35,641 nucleotides of DNA from a virus. Where the stretch lies: the UHGV virus genome UHGV-0194711; one strand, given 5' to 3'. Below the pieces are notes generated by a model. That model ran no database searches. It was not told the DNA's origin and saw nothing but the letters and a program-made list of their open reading frames with translations. Position 1 is the stretch's first letter; each line of letters opens with the position of its first letter. Position numbers and translations under genes: made by a program. Positions 21,679 through 35,433 of the stretch are shown one piece after another.

Positions 21679-22080
21679 TTAAATTCTGCATAGACGTAAT
21701 TCCTTTATCTCGTTAGTGACCTGTTCGAGCAATTCAGTCTCCGTGCCGTAGTTTTCTTCCCATGTTTTTTGCCCTGCGTGGATAGCTACGCCGTGTCCGC
21801 CGGTTCTGTGGTGTGGCGGGCAAAGCGGGAGAGTTTCTTTGTGGTCGGCGCGCTGGGCTATGCCCTGACCGGTTCGGATGTGATGGATTTCGGGGGCGGA
21901 GTACACGCCGAAGTGTACTTTGCAGACAATACAACCTATCTCAACGAGATCTTGGAAATATTGCTTATCTGATTTACTGGCGCGCTTTTTCACAAAGCAC
22001 CCCCTTGCTGGCTGCAAACTCCCCGTAATACAAATCTTCTGCTTTCCGGCGGGCATTGATAGCATCGGCAATTTCATCAA
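21679..22080 (-). CDS. Ref-like / HNH-motif nuclease (recombination enhancement function family), start uncertain
   Basis: CIVCKVHFGVYSAPEIHHIRTGQGIAQRADHKETLPLCPPHHRTGGHGVAIHAG His/Cys metal-finger pattern. The 5' end overlaps the AP2-HNH gene by ~100 nt if the first ATG is used; GTG at 21993 with GGGGG RBS is an alternative. Confidence 0.5.
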   Translation of the reverse strand: MMKLPMLSMPAGKQKICITGSLQPARGCFVKKRASKSDKQYFQDLVEIGCIVCKVHFGVYSAPEIHHIRTGQGIAQRADHKETLPLCPPHHRTGGHGVAIHAGQKTWEENYGTETELLEQVTNEIKELRLCRI

Positions 22081-22450
22081 AGCGGCCTAAACTAACGGTC
22101 CTGCCATCAACTGAAATTTGCGCCGCCCATTTTAGGCGAGTGGATACCCAGTAAATTCCCGGAATTCCTGAGCTATTGTCACTCCTCAAGCCCACATTTT
22201 TGGTATTGTCGGCCTGTGTGCAGATCCTCAGATTTGAGCGGGTGCAGTTGAGCTTATTACCATCAATGTGATCTACAACATCATGAGGCCCCGCATTCAT
22301 GATGACGCGATGAAGGTATCTTTCCTTGCCAAAATGCCAGCCGGTGACTTTTGCATAACCATTCGAGCCGATGTGGATGGGGTAACCCACAAAGATCAAG
22401 GCGTCGGCCTCATCCATCTCGACGATATGAGAGCGAATATTGAATTTCAT
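21974..22450 (-). CDS. HNH homing endonuclease with AP2 DNA-binding domain
   Basis: Start taken at MKFNIRS (GAGG RBS). HIDGNKLNCTRSNLRICTQADN HNH motif followed by an AP2-like segment (GIPGIYWVSTRLKWAAQISVDGRTVSLGRFDEIADAINARRKAEDLYYGEF). Confidence 0.75.
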   Translation of the reverse strand: MKFNIRSHIVEMDEADALIFVGYPIHIGSNGYAKVTGWHFGKERYLHRVIMNAGPHDVVDHIDGNKLNCTRSNLRICTQADNTKNVGLRSDNSSGIPGIYWVSTRLKWAAQISVDGRTVSLGRFDEIADAINARRKAEDLYYGEFAASKGVLCEKARQ

Positions 22451-22460
22451 AGTGTCCGCC

Positions 22461-23057
22461 TCAGGCCGCATAACTGAAAAGCTGAGAGGCTGCGTTTTCT
22501 GCTGCCTGCTGATTAGGGAAGGTGCGGAATAAAATAAAATTCCAGAGGACGTCTAATACGGATTTGTACAGCTGGGAAAATTCTACATCGTCCATTTTTG
22601 CGAACGATATGGATTTGGGTTCCTTGCGGGTGGTGCCATCAGGCATCTGGTATTCGGTATAAAAACCGGCCTCGATAGTTACCCAGGAACGGAAAGCTTC
22701 AAACGATTTAACCGCGCTGATATTGCCGGCGCGTTTTTCTGCCTCATCGCGCAGATACTGATCCGCCAGTTCCTGCAATGTGTCGCCATGCCCGGCATAG
22801 TGGGCCACCAGCTGCACGTAACCCCGAACCAGTTTTTTATCGGCTGGCGATATTGCACCGCCGGAAGGTTGCCAGTAATCAAATCCCAGATTCAGGAGGG
22901 CAAAAAATTTACGGTGAAATGCCGAGTTCCTTGCCTGTTTAAAATCCGCATACAGAATACCGCCCATGCGGACTTTTTTTTCTAAGAATTCGCGGGCGTC
23001 AGGCGTTGCCGGAATTAATACACCGCCGGGTGCTTTTACAAAAGAATACTGCGCCAT
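22461..23057 (-). CDS. DUF1367-family phage protein
   Basis: N-terminus MAQYSFVKAPGGVLIPATPDAREFL typical of DUF1367 proteins in enterobacterial lambdoid prophages (recalled, not searched). Confidence 0.5.
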   Translation of the reverse strand: MAQYSFVKAPGGVLIPATPDAREFLEKKVRMGGILYADFKQARNSAFHRKFFALLNLGFDYWQPSGGAISPADKKLVRGYVQLVAHYAGHGDTLQELADQYLRDEAEKRAGNISAVKSFEAFRSWVTIEAGFYTEYQMPDGTTRKEPKSISFAKMDDVEFSQLYKSVLDVLWNFILFRTFPNQQAAENAASQLFSYAA

Positions 23058-23850: not shown

Positions 23851-24468
23851 TTAGCTGGATAATCGTTTAATTGCATGGCGGAGCATAACTTGTGCATACA
23901 GCGCCGGAGCAAGAACCTGCGGCATTTTTGAGTAGCCCGCCCCAGAGAACAGGCGGCGTATTTCTTTAGGTGCCGCGCGTAGATTATTGATATTGTTGTT
24001 ATTCAAATCATTATCCAGATGGATAACCGAATAACCAGACGGTAATTTTCCATGTACGCATTCATATACGTATACATCGAGTCTAATTTTCTCTTTATTA
24101 ACAGTGATGTACTGTGGAAGAATGCGTTTCCGGCCTTTAGGTTCGCGTGTCCATCCGCGAGCTATCTTTACATCCTTGATATTGTCAGGTTTTTTATCGG
24201 TACCGAATCTCCTGTTGAACCTTTCTGTAAGTTCAGCATTCGTTAGATTCCTATTGGCATAAATGAAAGTCAGCTGCTCATCGGAATAGCGCGGCTCAAT
24301 TAAAAACTGCTTTCCTAACCCATGAGATTTGCACCAGATACGAATAGCGCCCACGCTCTTATTTGTACCAAATTTAGCGTTAAACATTTCAGTTAATTCC
24401 CGCGCAGTGGAGCTTTTAATATGCTGCTTGATAAACAACTCCTGGGCTGGAGTGTATTTCTCTATCAT
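23851..24468 (-). CDS. HNH homing endonuclease (AT-rich insertion)
   Basis: YECVHGKLPSGYSVIHLDNDLNNNNINNL HNH motif; N-terminal basic DNA-binding-like repeats; markedly AT-rich gene. Confidence 0.7.
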   Translation of the reverse strand: MIEKYTPAQELFIKQHIKSSTARELTEMFNAKFGTNKSVGAIRIWCKSHGLGKQFLIEPRYSDEQLTFIYANRNLTNAELTERFNRRFGTDKKPDNIKDVKIARGWTREPKGRKRILPQYITVNKEKIRLDVYVYECVHGKLPSGYSVIHLDNDLNNNNINNLRAAPKEIRRLFSGAGYSKMPQVLAPALYAQVMLRHAIKRLSS

Positions 24469-24697: not shown

Positions 24698-25288
24698 TTA
24701 GGCTACCTCCCCGATATATTCTGCAATGCCCGGCAGCAGCGCCACCGCTGGCGACTCACACTGATTGCCCCACACGTCGAAACCATGCGACGACTGGCGG
24801 GCGAATAACTCAATACGCGGCACATCGCCCAGCAGCTGCACCAGCTTTTCGCGCACGATATCCGGTTTGCGCGAATGCTCCAGACGCGGGGCCGTGAATG
24901 ACTGAACGATCCCTGCATCCATCCGGGCGGGTAATTTCCCCTGCACAGCGAAAAGGCAATCCTCGCTGTTCGCCCTGGTCAAATGGCCCATTCCAAGGGC
25001 CAGTTTGTCGGTCTGCCGGCTGTAGCATTTGTTCCACGTAAAGCCTTTCATGGTCATCAGACGGAAGCCCCACGCCTCGACTACTCGCAACGCCTCCAGC
25101 GGCTGAGTCGGTACCCACCACATAGCCAGCAGGCAGTTTTCAGCGGCCAGTTCCCAGACCGGGAGACGGCAGATATCGAGCACAGTCATGGTCTGGTATT
25201 TGTGCCCGGCGCCGCGTTCCCCGTCTTTGGCTTTGTCGCGGTAAGTCCATGGAGGATCCGCATAAATCAGGGTGTATTTGTTATTCAC
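24698..25288 (-). CDS. MT-A70-family DNA N6-adenine methyltransferase (orphan, no cognate restriction gene seen)
   Basis: IYADPPW catalytic motif near the N-terminus; 196 aa. Confidence 0.8.
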   Translation of the reverse strand: MNNKYTLIYADPPWTYRDKAKDGERGAGHKYQTMTVLDICRLPVWELAAENCLLAMWWVPTQPLEALRVVEAWGFRLMTMKGFTWNKCYSRQTDKLALGMGHLTRANSEDCLFAVQGKLPARMDAGIVQSFTAPRLEHSRKPDIVREKLVQLLGDVPRIELFARQSSHGFDVWGNQCESPAVALLPGIAEYIGEVA

Positions 25289-29017: not shown

Positions 29018-29464
29018 TTAAACGCTGGTCAGGCGCTGTGTTTCTCGCATAGCTTGCAATGCTCTGGCGACTTGCTGCGGCCCGTCTCTGGCGTCGAGTA
29101 ATAACGCGATAATCGCCGCGGCAAACTCACGAATGGCCACACAAATTAAATACTGGGTGGACATACCCAAGCGCGCGTAACGTTCTGCCGGCAGCGCCGC
29201 TTCCATCGCTTTGACCAGCGCCAGAGTTTTGGCTCTCGCGGCTTTGGTCTCGCCTCGCAACCAACGAAAAATTTGTTGGCGGTTGTTGTTGATTGCCCGC
29301 CAGTCGGCGTTTCCATCTGCATCTTCGATCTGGTGCAGCTTCAGCGAACCGGTATTACCACCAAGACGAAACCACATGCGGCTTATCTCGATAGCAACCA
29401 GCTCCTGCCCGCTTTCCGCTGCCCAGTTAAAGATCTCTCGTTTAAGTTCTTCGAGGTATTCCAC
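29018..29464 (-). CDS. YdaT-like regulatory protein (Rac prophage CII-analogue family)
   Basis: Resembles E. coli Rac YdaT by memory (conserved ...QQIFRWLRGETK... block); sits directly after the Cro-like gene as in Rac. Confidence 0.5.
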   Translation of the reverse strand: MEYLEELKREIFNWAAESGQELVAIEISRMWFRLGGNTGSLKLHQIEDADGNADWRAINNNRQQIFRWLRGETKAARAKTLALVKAMEAALPAERYARLGMSTQYLICVAIREFAAAIIALLLDARDGPQQVARALQAMRETQRLTSV

Positions 29465-29526
29465 TTCGAGCGTCTCCTGTCGCTGAAAATTGATTAAGCG
29501 TAATCAGATTTCGATAACGCCTGTAG

Positions 29527-29724
29527 TTATGCTTTAGACGTGTTTTGCTCTTCGTAAAAAGTAGGGTCGTACTTCAAGGCGCCCGCGGTTACATGCTCAA
29601 GTCGCGCAGCTCGCTTTTCAGGAACAACAGTCCCCCAGCGGGTTACAGCGACTTGAGAGATACCTAATGCACGCGCAACAGCGGTTTTAGTTCCAAAAAA
29701 TCTGATAACAGTTTCGGTCTTCAT
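29527..29724 (-). CDS. Cro-like HTH regulator (YdaS-like)
   Basis: 65 aa; HTH TKTAVARALGISQVAVTRWG; divergent from repressor across an operator region. Confidence 0.7.
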   Translation of the reverse strand: MKTETVIRFFGTKTAVARALGISQVAVTRWGTVVPEKRAARLEHVTAGALKYDPTFYEEQNTSKA

Positions 29725-29792: not shown

Positions 29793-30206
29793 ATGGATAT
29801 GAAAAAATTGACCTTTAACGATCGCATTACATCGAGACGGAAAGAGCTTGGTTTGACACAACAGCAGCTCGCCGATGCCGTTGGCATATCTGGCGTCAGC
29901 GTTTACAAGTGGGAAGCAGGTATTAACACCCCAAAAGGGCAAAATCTGTTTTCTCTCGCTGAGGCTCTTCGTTGCTCTCCGACATGGTTACTTAACGGTA
30001 CCGATAGCGATGAACCGTTGAAGGCAGAAGAGCTTTTACCTCGGTTAGATGATCGCCAAAAGCTACTGCTTGATCTTTTTGATTCTCTACCTGAATCAGA
30101 AAAAGATAGACATATCAATGAGTTGAAAGATAAAGTTGACGGATTCCAGCGATTGTTTGATGAGTTACTTTTGGTAAAAAAGAAAAAAAACACTCCAAAA
30201 AAATAA
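29793..30206 (+). CDS. Prophage repressor, XRE-family HTH (CI/RacR-like), without S24 peptidase domain
   Basis: HTH LGLTQQQLADAVGISGVSVYKWEAG; 137 aa, too short for a LexA-like autocleavage domain; divergent from cro-like gene. Confidence 0.75.
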   Translation: MDMKKLTFNDRITSRRKELGLTQQQLADAVGISGVSVYKWEAGINTPKGQNLFSLAEALRCSPTWLLNGTDSDEPLKAEELLPRLDDRQKLLLDLFDSLPESEKDRHINELKDKVDGFQRLFDELLLVKKKKNTPKK

Positions 30207-30255: not shown

Positions 30256-30290
30256 TAACTTTTGTTAGTAAAAAACATTGCCAATAAAAA
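30256..30290 (+). promoter_or_regulatory. Candidate early-left promoter with operator-like site
   Basis: TAACttttGTTAG (operator half-sites as in 29735-29750) overlapping -35 TTGTTA (30262-30267), 17 bp spacer, -10 TAAAAA (30285-30290). Confidence 0.4.
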
Positions 30291-30457
30291 TACCTTTGGT
30301 TATGCTTCACCACATCAAAGACGCACTAACCACGCGGCAGTTGTTCAGAAACAGTTCTGACAGTCCGGAAAGACGGGCGCGAATTCTTCGGGTCGCCGAC
30401 AGTACGATGACATGCGGGAAAGACCGCAACGAATACGAATTGCTGTGTGTAGTCTTG

Positions 30458-30482
30458 GCCCGGGCGCCCCGGGCATTTTTTT
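30458..30482 (+). terminator. Strong rho-independent terminator inside the early-left leader
   Basis: GCCCGGG-cgc-CCCGGGC perfect GC stem followed by ATTTTTTT. Confidence 0.7.
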
Positions 30483-30706: not shown

Positions 30707-31030
30707 ATGGAAGCGCTTACCATCCCCGTAACTATTTACGTTATGGCCACAACCAAACCATATCTACCAACGTCTTATCACTCATTCACCTGTGACATGT
30801 CACAGCAATACCCTGATCTGTATGTCCTCGTTACTACCAAAACGGTAGAGGTTGCCATTCCAGCTTTAGAGCCAATCGACATTATTGGTATGCAGGTTAA
30901 TGCCCTTCGTGCGAAGAAAGAGAAAATCTCTGCCGAAGCAAAGAAGGAGCTGGGTGTTATTGAAGACCAGATTCAGCAGCTGCTGTGCATCGATCACTCT
31001 CCAATTGAAGAAAGCGACGTACCGTTTTAA
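30707..31030 (+). CDS. Hypothetical protein (first gene of early-left operon)
   Basis: 107 aa; AAGGAG RBS before ATG. Confidence 0.5.
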   Translation: MEALTIPVTIYVMATTKPYLPTSYHSFTCDMSQQYPDLYVLVTTKTVEVAIPALEPIDIIGMQVNALRAKKEKISAEAKKELGVIEDQIQQLLCIDHSPIEESDVPF

Positions 31031-31074
31031 TTAACCGGCGCGTGACCTGCGCCAGTAACCAAGAGGAAAGACCA

Positions 31075-33225
31075 ATGACCATCTACAACGGCTCATTTGA
31101 GCCAAAGAAATCGGCGATTAAAGACTGCGGCGCCGTGCAGCTGGCGATCGCCATCGATGCGCCAAACAAAAAAGTGGCCGAAAGCATTATGACCGGCAAA
31201 CTCTGGGAATCATACCCGGCCAATGGTGACAACTATTTCAAACCGAAACTGTGGGAACACGTTGAAGGCCAGCCGCTGCCGACCGTTGGCCAGTTCGATG
31301 AGTCATTCGCCCAGCAGCATACTTTTGACGGTGAAAAATGGGTTTCTACTGCGCAGGATAGCGCTTCCGGAAGTGGTGCAGGTTTACCAGCCGACGATGA
31401 AGTGATCGACCTGATGACCGTTTCCCCTGATGAACGCTTTGCTGCCGTCCTGCTTTTTAGCACCGCGGCGATTGATGGCCATCTTTATTCTCAGGTTGTG
31501 GATTATCTGGATAATCTGAAAAACCACGATGGGGAATTTGAAGAGGAAGATCGCTTTAACTTTAATGTTCTGTGCGCCCTGCAAAATAACTTCCCGGTTC
31601 AAAGCATGCATGTGGAAGGTCTGAACAATCTTATTCAGGGTATTTTCTCCCACTTTGAAAACCAGACGCCGGGCAAAGCGGCTATCTCTCAGTTCGTTAA
31701 ACGCTGGCTTGAGAATCCGGGCAAGCGCGACGAACTGGCCCCCGGCGTATATAAAAATACCGCTCTCAGCACCAGCACCGATGATAAAACACCCGTGGTA
31801 ATTTCTAAGCGCGGGTATAAACACACTTATGCAACGCTGGATCAGGAGATCGCTACCGCCCTTCTCCCGCTGGCGCCTGATGCGCCGGTACTATCCGGAA
31901 ACCTTCTGGACGCTAAGAAGATGATTTCCGATGACCGGGAAGATTTTAAACGCTGGTCAGCATCGCTGCACACCACGCCGCAGATACTCAAATACGACCG
32001 TGCCAGCATCTTCGGCGTGGTACAAAACGTACCGGCGAAAGATACCTACCATTTCCCTGACAGCCTGCGCCGCCATATCGATTCATGGCTGGCGGCCAAC
32101 GGTCGCTTTGAGGAAACCGAGACAGGATCCGTTAAACAACCAGAGGCGACGCAAAATACCGCCTCAAACGTGGGCGAAAAAGTGGAAGCGCAGCAGCCGG
32201 TTGTAACCGACACTCAGGCCAAACAGGCGCGTGAGACGCTCAATGATATGGGTTATGGCGTATATGCCTCTGGTGAAGGTGCAGAGCCGGAAGAGAAGTT
32301 AAGCGTTAAGGCTGAAAAACTGGCTGATGATTCCGAGCGTTTAGCAAAACAAATCGCTCACGCTGAAAGCCTGCCTAACGCTGAGGATGTTGTGCAGGCT
32401 GTCGGAAAACCAATTATCGGGGAAGACAATTTAGACCTCTGGAAACGCGTATTTAAAACCGACGAAAGGTTTACTAAGGCTTTCACACAGAACGGCGGTG
32501 GCACCTCGATCAACGGTACCTACATGACCATGCTTGCCACACGTGAGTTTGGCCCTAAGGGCATCGGCTGGGGCGTGGATATTGTTGAAGAGCGTTTCGA
32601 TATTGGCGCGCCGATCACTCGGCAGGTAAAAGGCAAAGACAACAACGCATCGTGGGAGCTGGTTCTTGATGGGAATGGTAATACCGTCAACGAACAGCAC
32701 CATGTTGTGACTGTCCGGCTCTGGTACATCCTGAACGGAGTACGAGGTGAGGAAACAGCATACGGCTGTACACCCTACATTTACGGTAGTAAATACGGGA
32801 TCACCTGCGACGGCGAAGCAGCCAAAAAATCACTGACAGATGCGACCAAAAAAGCGTTATCCGGCCTCGGATTCAGTGGCGATATCTTTATGGGGCTTTA
32901 CGACAATCTGGAGTACCGCCAGAAGAACAAGGCCGAGTTTGACCTGAAGAACGCCAGCGAATCAGCCGAAGATGCAGCACGGCTCCGCCAGGAGTTTGAC
33001 GATAAATTAAGCCGCGTTGCTAATACCCTGGCGCATGGCGTGACGGTGAACGAAATCAACGGTGTGTTTTCCCCTATCGCACGTGAGATCGATGTTCACA
33101 TTAAAGCCGCCCAGGCCAACGGCGACACGCAGCATGAACGTTATCTGTCTGGCCGGCTCCGCCGACTCATCTCCATCAAAGATGGGCGCATTAAAGAACT
33201 GAATAAAGCCGAGGAGAAAGCATAA
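31075..33225 (+). CDS. Large early protein with C-terminal Erf-like single-strand annealing (SSAP) domain and ~450 aa N-terminal region of unknown function
   Basis: Start at MTIYNG with conserved TIR. C-terminal segment ...YGCTPYIYGSKYGITCDGEAAKKSLTDATKKALSGLGFSGDIF resembles the Erf signature (SYARKYCLNGLFGID) by eye. Confidence 0.4.
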   Translation: MTIYNGSFEPKKSAIKDCGAVQLAIAIDAPNKKVAESIMTGKLWESYPANGDNYFKPKLWEHVEGQPLPTVGQFDESFAQQHTFDGEKWVSTAQDSASGSGAGLPADDEVIDLMTVSPDERFAAVLLFSTAAIDGHLYSQVVDYLDNLKNHDGEFEEEDRFNFNVLCALQNNFPVQSMHVEGLNNLIQGIFSHFENQTPGKAAISQFVKRWLENPGKRDELAPGVYKNTALSTSTDDKTPVVISKRGYKHTYATLDQEIATALLPLAPDAPVLSGNLLDAKKMISDDREDFKRWSASLHTTPQILKYDRASIFGVVQNVPAKDTYHFPDSLRRHIDSWLAANGRFEETETGSVKQPEATQNTASNVGEKVEAQQPVVTDTQAKQARETLNDMGYGVYASGEGAEPEEKLSVKAEKLADDSERLAKQIAHAESLPNAEDVVQAVGKPIIGEDNLDLWKRVFKTDERFTKAFTQNGGGTSINGTYMTMLATREFGPKGIGWGVDIVEERFDIGAPITRQVKGKDNNASWELVLDGNGNTVNEQHHVVTVRLWYILNGVRGEETAYGCTPYIYGSKYGITCDGEAAKKSLTDATKKALSGLGFSGDIFMGLYDNLEYRQKNKAEFDLKNASESAEDAARLRQEFDDKLSRVANTLAHGVTVNEINGVFSPIAREIDVHIKAAQANGDTQHERYLSGRLRRLISIKDGRIKELNKAEEKA

Positions 33226-33791
33226 TGACTTCCACCACTGCAATTGCTATCGCAGCCGATATGTCAAAACTCCAGGCACTACTGGAAAACGAAGACGGTG
33301 CTGGTCTGTCTCCTGAAATGATCGCCGACACAATGGAAGGTCTTGAGTTACAACTCGGCGATAAACTGGATGCCGTTTTCGTCCACGTTCGCAATCTGGA
33401 AGGCCTGGCAAAAACCTGCGATGAAGAGGCCAAACGCCTTGCCGCCCGCAAAAAATCATTCGAAGGTAAGATCACGAACCTGAAGAAATATGTTCTCCAG
33501 TGTCTACTGGCCGCCGGTCAGGATACGGTTAAAACCGCCAAAAATACCTTTACCGCACGTAAGGGAGCTATAAACGTCGTGATCGATAATGATGAATTAC
33601 TGCCGGATGAATTAGTGACAGTTCAGACGTTAGTCACTCCGGACAAGAAAGCCATCAAGGAAGCGATTGAATCAGCACAGGCAGCGGCGGCCCAGATTAC
33701 CGCTGACGGCGGAGAGATACCGGAAGAACTGTTAAACCCAGTGCCGGGCGCTCACCTTGAGATTGGCGAACGTTCGCTGCAGGTGCGCTGA
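33225..33791 (+). CDS. Gam-like / Gp157-family protein (putative host-nuclease inhibitor)
   Basis: 188 aa, N-terminal coiled coil, follows SSAP gene with stop/start overlap; weak resemblance to Mu Gam-type proteins from memory. Confidence 0.35.
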   Translation: MTSTTAIAIAADMSKLQALLENEDGAGLSPEMIADTMEGLELQLGDKLDAVFVHVRNLEGLAKTCDEEAKRLAARKKSFEGKITNLKKYVLQCLLAAGQDTVKTAKNTFTARKGAINVVIDNDELLPDELVTVQTLVTPDKKAIKEAIESAQAAAAQITADGGEIPEELLNPVPGAHLEIGERSLQVR

Positions 33792-34187: not shown

Positions 34188-34433
34188 ATGAGACACGATC
34201 ACGACATCATCACCAGAGAGGAAATGATCGAACTGACGGGGACCCCACTTAAATCGAGGCAGTGTGAAGCGCTACGTCGGGCCGGTGTCTTTTTCATGGA
34301 AAGGGCAGACGGCCATCCTAAAACGACGTGGGGCCATTTCCTGAACCCGATTAAATACCGCAACCAGCAGGAAGAGACGGTGCGGGAGGAAGAACCAGAC
34401 TTCGGAGCTATCTTTAATGGCCGGAAAACGTAA
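34188..34433 (+). CDS. DUF4224-family protein (excisionase-like, upstream of integrase)
   Basis: ITREEMIELTGTPLKSRQCEALRRAGVFF matches the DUF4224 pattern typically found next to integrases; TIR GAGGAAAGACCATG variant. Confidence 0.55.
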   Translation: MRHDHDIITREEMIELTGTPLKSRQCEALRRAGVFFMERADGHPKTTWGHFLNPIKYRNQQEETVREEEPDFGAIFNGRKT

Positions 34434-35433
34434 GAACCCCGCTGATAACTGGATGCCGCCCCGCGTGTATCGCGGTAAGGCGGCGTATGAATTCAGGAAT
34501 AAAGATAACAAGGCTATCAGGCTATGTGCGCTCTCCGAGCCTCAATCAGCTGTATGGCTGGCATATGAAAAAGCCATGGGAGAAGAAGTCGAGCGCAAGA
34601 CGTTTCAGGCTCTGGCCGATCAATTCATGTCTTCCCCTGACTGGCAGGATTTAGCGGCAGAAACCCGCAAAGACTACACGAAATACGCAGGCAAAGTGTT
34701 GCCGGTGTTCGGGAAGGTTAACCCCGATAAAATTAAACCGGAACACATCCGGCGCTATATGGATCAGCGTGGCATGGCCAGTAAAACGCAGGCCAACCGG
34801 GAAAAGAGTTTTCTTTCTCGGGTATTCCGCTGGGGTTATGAGCGGGGTTACGTCCAGCATAATCCCTGTCAGGGCGTTAAGAAGTTCAAAGAGGCAGCCC
34901 GGGAGCGTTACATCACCGACGAAGAATACAAAGCGGTTTACGATGTTGCTCCAGACGTAGTTCGCGCCACCATGGAAATCGCTTATTTGTGTCTGGCCAG
35001 ACAAAGCGATGTGCTGGCTTTGACTGAAGACCAGATACGCGAAACCGGGATCTTTATCCGCCAGGGGAAAACAGGCGTGAAGCAAATCAAAGCATGGTCG
35101 CCACGCCTGCGCGCCGCTGTCGCCCTCGCCCGTTCCCTGCCGTTAAAGCCGGGTATCCGTAGCCTGTTTGTCATTCACCAGACCAGCGGCAGCAAATACA
35201 CCCGTGACGGTTTTAATTCACGCTGGCGCGACGCGAAAATCGCAGCGCAGGAAAAGAACCCACACCTGCAGATAGATTTCACTTTCCACGATCTGAAAGC
35301 GAAAGGTGTCTCTGATCTGGAAGGAAGCCTCGAGGAGAAACAGGCGATTTCAGGCCATAAGAATTCGAGACAAACGGCGATTTACGACAGGAAAACTAAA
35401 ATTGTGCCGGTTGTTGGTGGTCAGAAAAAATGA
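34417..35433 (+). CDS. int: Tyrosine recombinase / phage integrase
   Basis: 338 aa; C-terminal catalytic region HDLKAKG...GHKNSRQTAIYDR (H-x-x-R and Tyr); adjacent to tRNA att site. Confidence 0.9.
   Translation: MAGKRKNPADNWMPPRVYRGKAAYEFRNKDNKAIRLCALSEPQSAVWLAYEKAMGEEVERKTFQALADQFMSSPDWQDLAAETRKDYTKYAGKVLPVFGKVNPDKIKPEHIRRYMDQRGMASKTQANREKSFLSRVFRWGYERGYVQHNPCQGVKKFKEAARERYITDEEYKAVYDVAPDVVRATMEIAYLCLARQSDVLALTEDQIRETGIFIRQGKTGVKQIKAWSPRLRAAVALARSLPLKPGIRSLFVIHQTSGSKYTRDGFNSRWRDAKIAAQEKNPHLQIDFTFHDLKAKGVSDLEGSLEEKQAISGHKNSRQTAIYDRKTKIVPVVGGQKK

Follow-up and report, generated by a model that had tools for sequence, protein, structure and literature searches.

A putative Rad52/Sak-type annealase fused to a RecE-type N-terminal module and paired with Gp157 in a lambdoid-type prophage

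What is the 716-amino-acid (aa) protein encoded on the + strand at 31075..33225 of the virus genome UHGV-0194711, and is it a single protein at all? Positions are numbered on the whole stretch of DNA that was analysed, 35,641 nt long, which we call the window. An earlier reading made from the letters of the window (the first-pass annotation) had described an early protein whose Erf-like annealing domain follows a much longer N-terminal region, with a Gam-like gene next to it. We consider it likely that the protein is this prophage's recombinase for single-strand annealing, with a Rad52/Sak-type core fused to a module related to the N-terminal region of RecE (the RecE-N module, or N-module) and paired with the product of the adjoining gene, a member of the Sipho_Gp157 family (Gp157). 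The parts to which we refer are as follows.

31075..33225, + strand: whole 716-aa gene, comprising RecE-N module, linker, putative Rad52-type core and helical tail
31075..32121, + strand: RecE-N module, residues 1-349
32122..32421, + strand: linker, residues 350-449
32422..32907, + strand: putative Rad52/Sak-type annealase core, residues about 450-611
32908..33222, + strand: C-terminal three-helix tail, residues 612-716
33225..33791, + strand: Sipho_Gp157 family gene, 188 aa (PF05565, phrog_253)

Integrity and distribution of the fused gene

The 716-aa gene is one uninterrupted open reading frame (ORF) on the + strand, running from an ATG at 31075 to a stop codon at 33223-33225. A strong Shine-Dalgarno sequence, AAGAGGAAA, lies 6 nt 5' of this ATG, and diverged homologues align their own residue 1 to the Met encoded at 31075; an alternative in-frame start, a GTG at 31042, would add 11 residues and give a product of 727 aa. 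The stop codon overlaps the start of the 188-aa gene (33225-33791) in the sequence TAATG, an arrangement that suggests translational coupling, and the 188-aa gene is probably coupled to the annealase gene in this way. The full-length protein matches phrog_2489 (E-value (E) 0), and the precomputed Pfam entry PF27430 is present on all full-length homologues, such that the family is already clustered in both resources; our own Pfam scan of the full 716-aa protein gave no match.

The same single coding sequence is found, with identical gene order, in 'Stenotrophomonas phage vB_SmeS_BUCT708' (locus L001, OM816834.1; 710 aa, 80% identity) and in an E. coli prophage (713 aa). In Klebsiella and Raoultella, proteins of 708-741 aa that are 80-97% identical to the window protein make up hundreds of clusters at 90% identity, and a single fused gene at 28-60% identity is present in Serratia, Pectobacterium, Xenorhabdus, Photorhabdus, Proteus, Providencia, Morganella and Yersinia. 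With one genome taken per species, Escherichia whittamii included, identities of the annealase domain across genera are 45-68%. An uninterrupted fused ORF of 584-739 aa occurs in 37 independent species genomes, and the gene is split into two ORFs at only 4 of 41 Enterobacterales loci (L006, L013, L039 and L043). These split genes could reflect decay, sequencing errors or genuine fission. The two ORFs of L006 and of L013 overlap within the linker, those of L039 are separated by a gap of ~1.3 kb, and the N-module ORF of L043 is short. In a neighbour-joining tree of the annealase domains (drawn without bootstrap), the fused forms make up one large Enterobacterales clade nested among the standalone forms, with a few apparent fissions inside it. 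We conclude that the 716-aa fusion is genuine: because the single ORF is conserved across genera, a frameshift or merging of two genes, which the first-pass annotation had raised against its own proposal, is excluded. The early protein that it had described is equally borne out by the uninterrupted + strand ORF, the strong ribosome-binding site and the homologues with the same Met start.

Phage BUCT708 shares full synteny and ~80% identity with the Klebsiella-type window region and the E. coli prophage beside tRNA-Leu/pgsA. For a lambdoid phage of enterobacterial type, assignment to a Stenotrophomonas host is unusual.

Domains of the 716-aa protein

Homologues of residues ~450-716 occur as standalone proteins, 235-280 aa long, in Pseudomonas, Hahella, Vibrio phages and others; they start exactly at the domain boundary of the window protein, near residue 450. 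The Pfam family Rad52_Rad22 (PF04098; curated cut-off, 20.3 bits) is matched by 18 of 29 aligned family members. Three of these exceed the cut-off, namely P0052 (28.3 bits), P0013 (23.0) and P0053 (20.4), over model positions 13-139 of 153, and P0013 is ~49% identical to the annealase domain of the window protein. The C-terminal half is predicted to adopt a Rad52 fold, with a core of beta-sheet plus long helix. An invariant helix motif, KKSLTDAxxKALSxLG, aligns to PF04098 positions 105-137; K145, K146 and K154 are invariant across 29 sequences, and may correspond to K152/R153 of RAD52. Three further helices (173-214, 219-242 and 246-276 in the numbering of the C-terminal model) form a tail that is common to the standalone annealases and that, at residues 612-716 of the window protein, is a candidate partner-binding region. 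Taken on homology and structural modelling, the C-terminal domain is best described as a divergent Rad52/Sak-type annealase.

We rejected an assignment to the Erf family. The ERF family (PF04404) has no match in the full protein at E <= 0.1, and none in the C-terminal domain and 28 relatives at E <= 1; the Rad52_Rad22 family and the fold fit instead. Rad52 and Erf have been grouped in one superfamily (PMC2896510, PMC8093625). The 'Erf-like annealing domain' proposed previously is therefore right as to the annealing domain and its superfamily, and wrong as to the family.

The first-pass annotation had also placed the domain boundary near residue 450, where we find it, and had treated the N-terminal two-thirds as a single region of ~450 aa that lacks a recognisable motif, with an exonuclease among its possible identities. 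The region instead comprises a module of ~350 aa, homologous to the N-terminal region of RecE/Exo VIII-type proteins, and then a linker of ~100 aa; that it is an exonuclease is unlikely, there being no nuclease fold and no conserved residues of catalytic type. In the AlphaFold2 (AF2) model most of the linker (350-449) is of low confidence or disordered; it contains two or three isolated helices, and its predicted local distance difference test score (pLDDT) is below 50 at residues 350-376 and 399-407. Its conservation and occupancy are low, yet it is in frame and retained.

Homology of the N-module to RecE appears in several comparisons. Residues 10-386 are colinear with residues 11-377 of the 823-aa exonuclease of phage mEp460 (28% identity, E 3e-27). 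Residues 129-366 match positions 144-385 of the NCBIfam RecE model PRK09709 (E 1e-11), a partial match whose 41.6 bits, over model positions 176-381, do not reach the equivalog threshold of 1269 bits. A profile of the module matches Rac RecE at 48-98 (E 4e-7) and at 180-413 (E 7e-24), and residues ~230-390 match PHROGs families that contain RecE-like proteins. Three subdomains are predicted with confidence (AF2 pLDDT about 90), one alpha/beta (~1-92) and two helical (103-228 and 245-349). Most positions conserved among diverse N-module members hold a hydrophobic residue, Pro or Ala; a few scattered ones are Lys/Arg, and there is no nuclease-type acidic or His cluster; nor does the N-module match any nuclease Pfam family or nuclease fold. 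For PD-(D/E)XK nucleases in particular, the window protein has no Pfam match and is missed by phmmer with the RecE nuclease domain (564-866; PF12684-like), a search that matches 15 other N-module proteins.

Among 1.84 billion representative proteins scanned with HMMER, only 143 clusters contain the N-module. We classified the C-termini of 84 sequences of at least 480 aa (81 representatives together with the window protein, Rac RecE and the mEp460 protein); the ranges arise from two cut-offs, one laxer and one stricter, for how long the matched stretch must be. The C-terminal domain is Rad52-like in 22-25 of the 84, a RecE PD-(D/E)XK nuclease in 15, a DnaQ-like exonuclease in 12, and none of these three in the other 32-35. 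The N-module is confined to prophage early operons, where its fusion partners are varied effectors, and we infer from these sequences that it is a non-catalytic accessory whose C-terminal effector can be exchanged. A fourth class, about 490-760 aa long (P0259, P0266, P0270 and about 30 representatives; phrog_26058), is without the three C-terminal domains; fourteen of its members have PF06630 only, the others have no Pfam domain, and the consensus contains a conserved C-terminal motif, QQLTxAALxGxxANP. The C-terminus of this class may be another swappable effector.

Database names tell a different story. PHROG 2489, 2082 and 607 are labelled exonuclease, and RefSeq uses 'exonuclease family protein' and 'phage-associated endonuclease'. 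The name 'exonuclease family protein' is a transitive mislabel of the 716-aa protein, because it was inherited from RecE-like proteins, whose nuclease is the C-terminal domain that is absent here. The N-terminal region of RecE is of unknown function and dispensable for nuclease activity, and full-length RecE is better at linear-linear recombination (PMC11611040). We treat 'miniRecE E121-T222' (PMC12825301) as no more than a lead towards autonomous activity of the N-module; the base of the construct's numbering is unstated in the main text of that paper.

Gp157 and the surrounding prophage

The 188-aa protein matches Sipho_Gp157 (PF05565) at 120.7 bits (cut-off, 28.6; E 8e-35) over positions 4-146 of 162, and of its 209 homologues the 120 listed all have PF05565, with no Gam domain among them. 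Of 80 loci with a Rad52-like domain, 77 have a Gp157 homologue as the next gene downstream, on the same strand, and the other three are truncated contigs. Hence, Gp157 is an obligate neighbour of the Rad52-like annealase family. Because the pairing holds for fused and standalone annealases alike, what is conserved is the annealase-Gp157 pair, to which the N-module was added in a particular lineage. The view of the first-pass annotation that the annealase and the downstream gene form a recombination module agrees with this linkage. Its identification of the downstream gene as Gam-like has to be replaced: 'Mu Gam-like' is the name of PHROG 253 only, and the Gam families of Pfam (Mu Gam, PF07352; lambda Gam, PF06064) have no match in the Gp157 protein at E <= 0.1. 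A sequence search of the PDB with the Gp157 profile yielded no relative. Aligning the Gp157 family to the Mu Gam family with hhalign gave a probability of 0.3% in each of two runs, a weak test with profiles this shallow (effective number of sequences, Neff, about 2.5), which leaves room for a remote structural resemblance, and deepening the profiles from viral contigs brought only close relatives. In phages of Firmicutes, Mu gam-like, DUF1351, DUF2483 and sipho_gp157 genes share one position beside genes for single-strand annealing proteins (SSAPs), from which analogous roles have been inferred (PMC8093625).

Invariant acidic residues of Gp157 are D35, D46, E68, D128 and E179. At 33672-33740 (Gp157 residues ~150-172), an Ala/Glu-rich insertion of 19-23 aa, SAQAAAAQITADGGEIPEELLNP, stands right before an invariant VPGAhxE motif. 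It is found in the Gp157 protein of the window and in some relatives, and is missing from many Serratia, Proteus and Pseudomonas homologues.

Judged from the surrounding genes, the locus is the leftward early operon of a lambdoid-type prophage. The other features of the prophage that bear on this are listed here.

21974-22471 and 23851-24468, - strand: HNH_3 endonuclease genes flanking the mediator gene
22461-23057, - strand: NinB/Orf-type recombination mediator (DUF1367, phrog_319), the only other recombination function in the prophage
24698-25288: MT-A70 DNA methyltransferase
29018-29724, - strand: Cro and YdaT/CII-like gene, on the strand opposite to the recombination operon
29793-30206: CI-like repressor
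30707..31030, + strand: 107-aa gene (phrog_2479, E 2e-53), which opens the leftward early operon segment
33793..33978, + strand: 61-aa small gene (phrog_2482, E 7e-34), between gp157 and xis/int
34417-35433: tyrosine integrase, preceded by a DUF4224 excisionase

A homologue of the phrog_2479 gene is upstream in 35 of 38 fused loci (the exceptions are L035, L037 and L040) and in no standalone locus; the association may reflect function or no more than common prophage ancestry. The 107-aa product of the gene in the window has no similarity to RacC, which occupies the equivalent position before recE. The 61-aa gene is also annotated in phage BUCT708 and in the E. coli prophage.

Neither the early nor the nin region encodes a λ Exo, RecE or YqaJ-type exonuclease, and a search elsewhere in the prophage also found none. 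The other early genes encode an O-like initiator, a DnaB helicase, the MT-A70 methyltransferase, the two HNH endonucleases and the NinB/Orf-type mediator. No Gam or Abc is recognisable in the prophage, and PADLOC found no defence-family match for the four proteins of the module. Because the phage is without an exonuclease of its own, the single-stranded DNA (ssDNA) on which the annealase acts would have to come from host nucleases or replication forks, by analogy with other annealase phages that are without an exonuclease.

Between the repressor gene and the recombination operon are a promoter-like site at 30278-30306 (+) and, after it at 30458-30474 (+), a strong hairpin, GC-rich and terminator-like (GCCCGGGCGCCCCGGGC, with a T-run). 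Together they recall pL/tL1 of lambda, which are antitermination-dependent; no N-like ORF was identified. Matches to P22_Cro and YdaS_toxin were obtained for the Cro-like gene, and to YdaT_toxin and the PHROG 'CII-like activator' for the gene that follows it; the YdaS/YdaT pair, formerly annotated as a toxin-antitoxin, occupies the canonical cro-cII position here. The integrase gene ends at 35433, close to the right edge, which places the attachment site and any flanking tRNA at or beyond the end of the window. ARAGORN found no tRNA gene within the 35.6-kb window.

Proposed function, alternatives and known systems

The recombinase that we propose would work as follows. By analogy with RAD52, Mgm101 and Sak, the core (~450-611) would assemble into rings, with ssDNA bound in a basic groove, and anneal complementary strands. 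In an Enterobacterales prophage lineage, this annealase became fused, through a flexible linker of ~100 aa, to a RecE-type N-module of ~350 aa that probably serves, whatever the effector, as an accessory for the attached DNA-end-processing domain, by end tethering, scaffolding or host-factor binding. Such a role fits the known stimulation of linear-linear recombination by the N-terminal region of RecE. With its flexibility, the linker could leave the N-module free to work alongside the ring; the helical tail and Gp157 may interact or cooperate, and the annealase and the coupled Gp157 protein would work as a conserved two-gene module.

Several results weigh against this proposal. The domain of the window protein itself scores 13.7 bits against PF04098 (E 0.061), below the cut-off of 20.3 and over the conserved helix only, and sequence searches of the PDB with the full protein and with the C-terminal profile returned nothing significant; the assignment of the window protein to the Rad52 family rests on predicted fold and transitive homology. 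Comparison of the predicted fold of the N-module gave no informative relative, and what this module does we infer throughout. The invariant acidic residues of Gp157 leave room for a putative enzymatic function.

Other explanations of the locus differ in how much of it they would change. To an assembly or sequencing artefact, or a pseudogene in which a RecE-N-like gene and a standalone annealase gene were made into one by a frameshift or the loss of a stop codon, we give practically no credence: standalone annealases exist, 4 of the 41 Enterobacterales loci are split and the ORFs of L006 and L013 overlap at the domain junction, but the ORF is uninterrupted in 37 species genomes and in hundreds of Klebsiella clusters at 28-97% identity, the fused forms make one large clade, and the linker is retained in frame despite its poor conservation. 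Nor do we think that one polypeptide resects and anneals, its N-terminal region being itself a nuclease. This very improbable arrangement would accord with the exonuclease and endonuclease names in PHROG 2489, 2082 and 607 and in RefSeq, and with a prophage that has no separate exonuclease; the names, however, were inherited from RecE-like proteins whose C-terminal nuclease is absent here, and the N-module has neither a nuclease Pfam or fold match nor an acidic or His cluster among conserved positions that are mostly hydrophobic, with scattered Lys/Arg.

Phages that have an annealase and are without an exonuclease often carry modifiers of RecBCD, such as P22 Abc2 and lambda Gam, and the prophage studied here has no recognisable Gam or Abc. 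The N-module, confined to prophage early operons and fused to varied effectors, might act mainly in counter-defence or host takeover, by inhibiting or hijacking RecBCD or by shielding the annealase from SSAP-sensing defence, with Gp157 as the true recombination partner. We regard this as improbable. The N-module has no similarity to known anti-defence proteins and no PADLOC-related family match; moreover, it is also found on RecE nucleases, which are already accompanied by RecT, and full-length RecE specifically improves recombination (PMC11611040). An alternative that concerns the partner, and that can be entertained tentatively, is that Gp157 is a Mu-Gam/Ku-like protector that binds DNA ends, so that the module combines end protection with annealing. 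The size of the protein (166-188 aa, against 174 aa for Mu Gam), the name 'Mu Gam-like end protection' of PHROG 253, the equivalent positions of Gp157 and Mu gam-like genes beside SSAP genes in Firmicutes phages (PMC8093625), and a weak colinear hhalign match that includes a common (D/N)K-x-AI motif all point that way. They are set against the low hhalign probability, weak as that test is, the want of any PF07352/PF06064 match or PDB relative, and the presence of PF05565, and in no case Gam, in the 120 listed homologues.

The single-strand annealing recombinase that we favour also has a bolder form, which we think rather unlikely. In it, the RecE-N module would be an autonomous, portable recombination-promoting domain (one that tethers DNA ends, or one that recruits a host nuclease or a replisome factor), which prophages can join equally to a 5'-3' nuclease, to a 3'-5' exonuclease or to an annealase, and which here replaces the missing phage exonuclease. 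If so, the 716-aa protein and Gp157 would constitute a compact, self-sufficient system for double-stranded DNA recombineering in Klebsiella and relatives, and the N-terminal region of RecE would at last have a function.

For annotation, our analysis suggests that a very common prophage protein of Klebsiella and other Enterobacterales, labelled 'exonuclease', 'endonuclease' or 'hypothetical', is an annealase without a nuclease domain. What the N-terminal ~560 residues of RecE do has been asked since RecE was dissected. The natural occurrence of the N-module on three mechanistically different DNA-processing domains argues for an independent, general role, and provides natural chimeras with which this region of RecE can be tested. 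The strict annealase-Gp157 pairing, in fused and standalone forms, points to Gp157 as a core partner of the annealase family, and the native annealase systems of Klebsiella, Serratia and Proteus prophages are candidate recombineering tools for these hosts. In the literature searched, we found no recognition of the 'exonuclease' as an annealase, and no description of the RecE N-module as a portable unit with three alternative effectors or of Gp157 as an invariant partner of the Rad52-like annealase family. The parts themselves (a Rad52-family annealase, the RecE N-terminal region and Gp157) are of known kinds, and the locus is not a new kind of system.

Compared with the Sak proteins of lactococcal phage ul36 and staphylococcal phage 80alpha, and with RAD52/Mgm101, the window protein adds an N-terminal extension of ~450 aa (RecE-N module plus linker), of a kind that we did not find described on any Rad52-family annealase in the literature searched. 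It also differs from them in being too divergent for the Pfam threshold, in its distinct three-helix C-terminal tail and in its obligate Gp157 neighbour. Like P22, with its erf, abc1, abc2 and arf genes, the prophage is a temperate enterobacterial phage with a putative annealase of the wider Rad52/Erf superfamily, and P22 Erf works without a phage exonuclease; unlike P22, it has no ERF Pfam match in the annealase and no Abc-like genes, and has another accessory gene and a fused N-module.

The standalone annealases of Pseudomonas and Hahella prophages and of Pseudomonas phage LKA5 (gp20, 'DNA repair protein') have the orthologous domain at 38-46% identity, helical tail included, and, at 241-278 aa, are without the N-terminal module. 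In the Pseudomonas and Hahella prophages gp157 is directly downstream, as in the window, whereas in LKA5 the next gene is DUF1351-like, with an exonuclease and a single-stranded DNA-binding protein (SSB) nearby. This is consistent with the interchangeable SSAP neighbours of Firmicutes phages (PMC8093625).

The closest N-module relative with a different effector is the 823-aa 'exodeoxyribonuclease' of mEp460, CP-933P and Stx prophages. Its gene is also directly upstream of xis/int, but its C-terminus is a DnaQ-like 3'-5' exonuclease of the Rv2179c type (PF16473), and no annealase or gp157 gene adjoins it. Finally, Rac RecE (exodeoxyribonuclease VIII) shares with the window protein a homologous N-terminal region and a position in the leftward early operon beside xis/int; in place of its C-terminal PD-(D/E)XK nuclease the window protein has the putative annealase, and the next gene is gp157 rather than recT.

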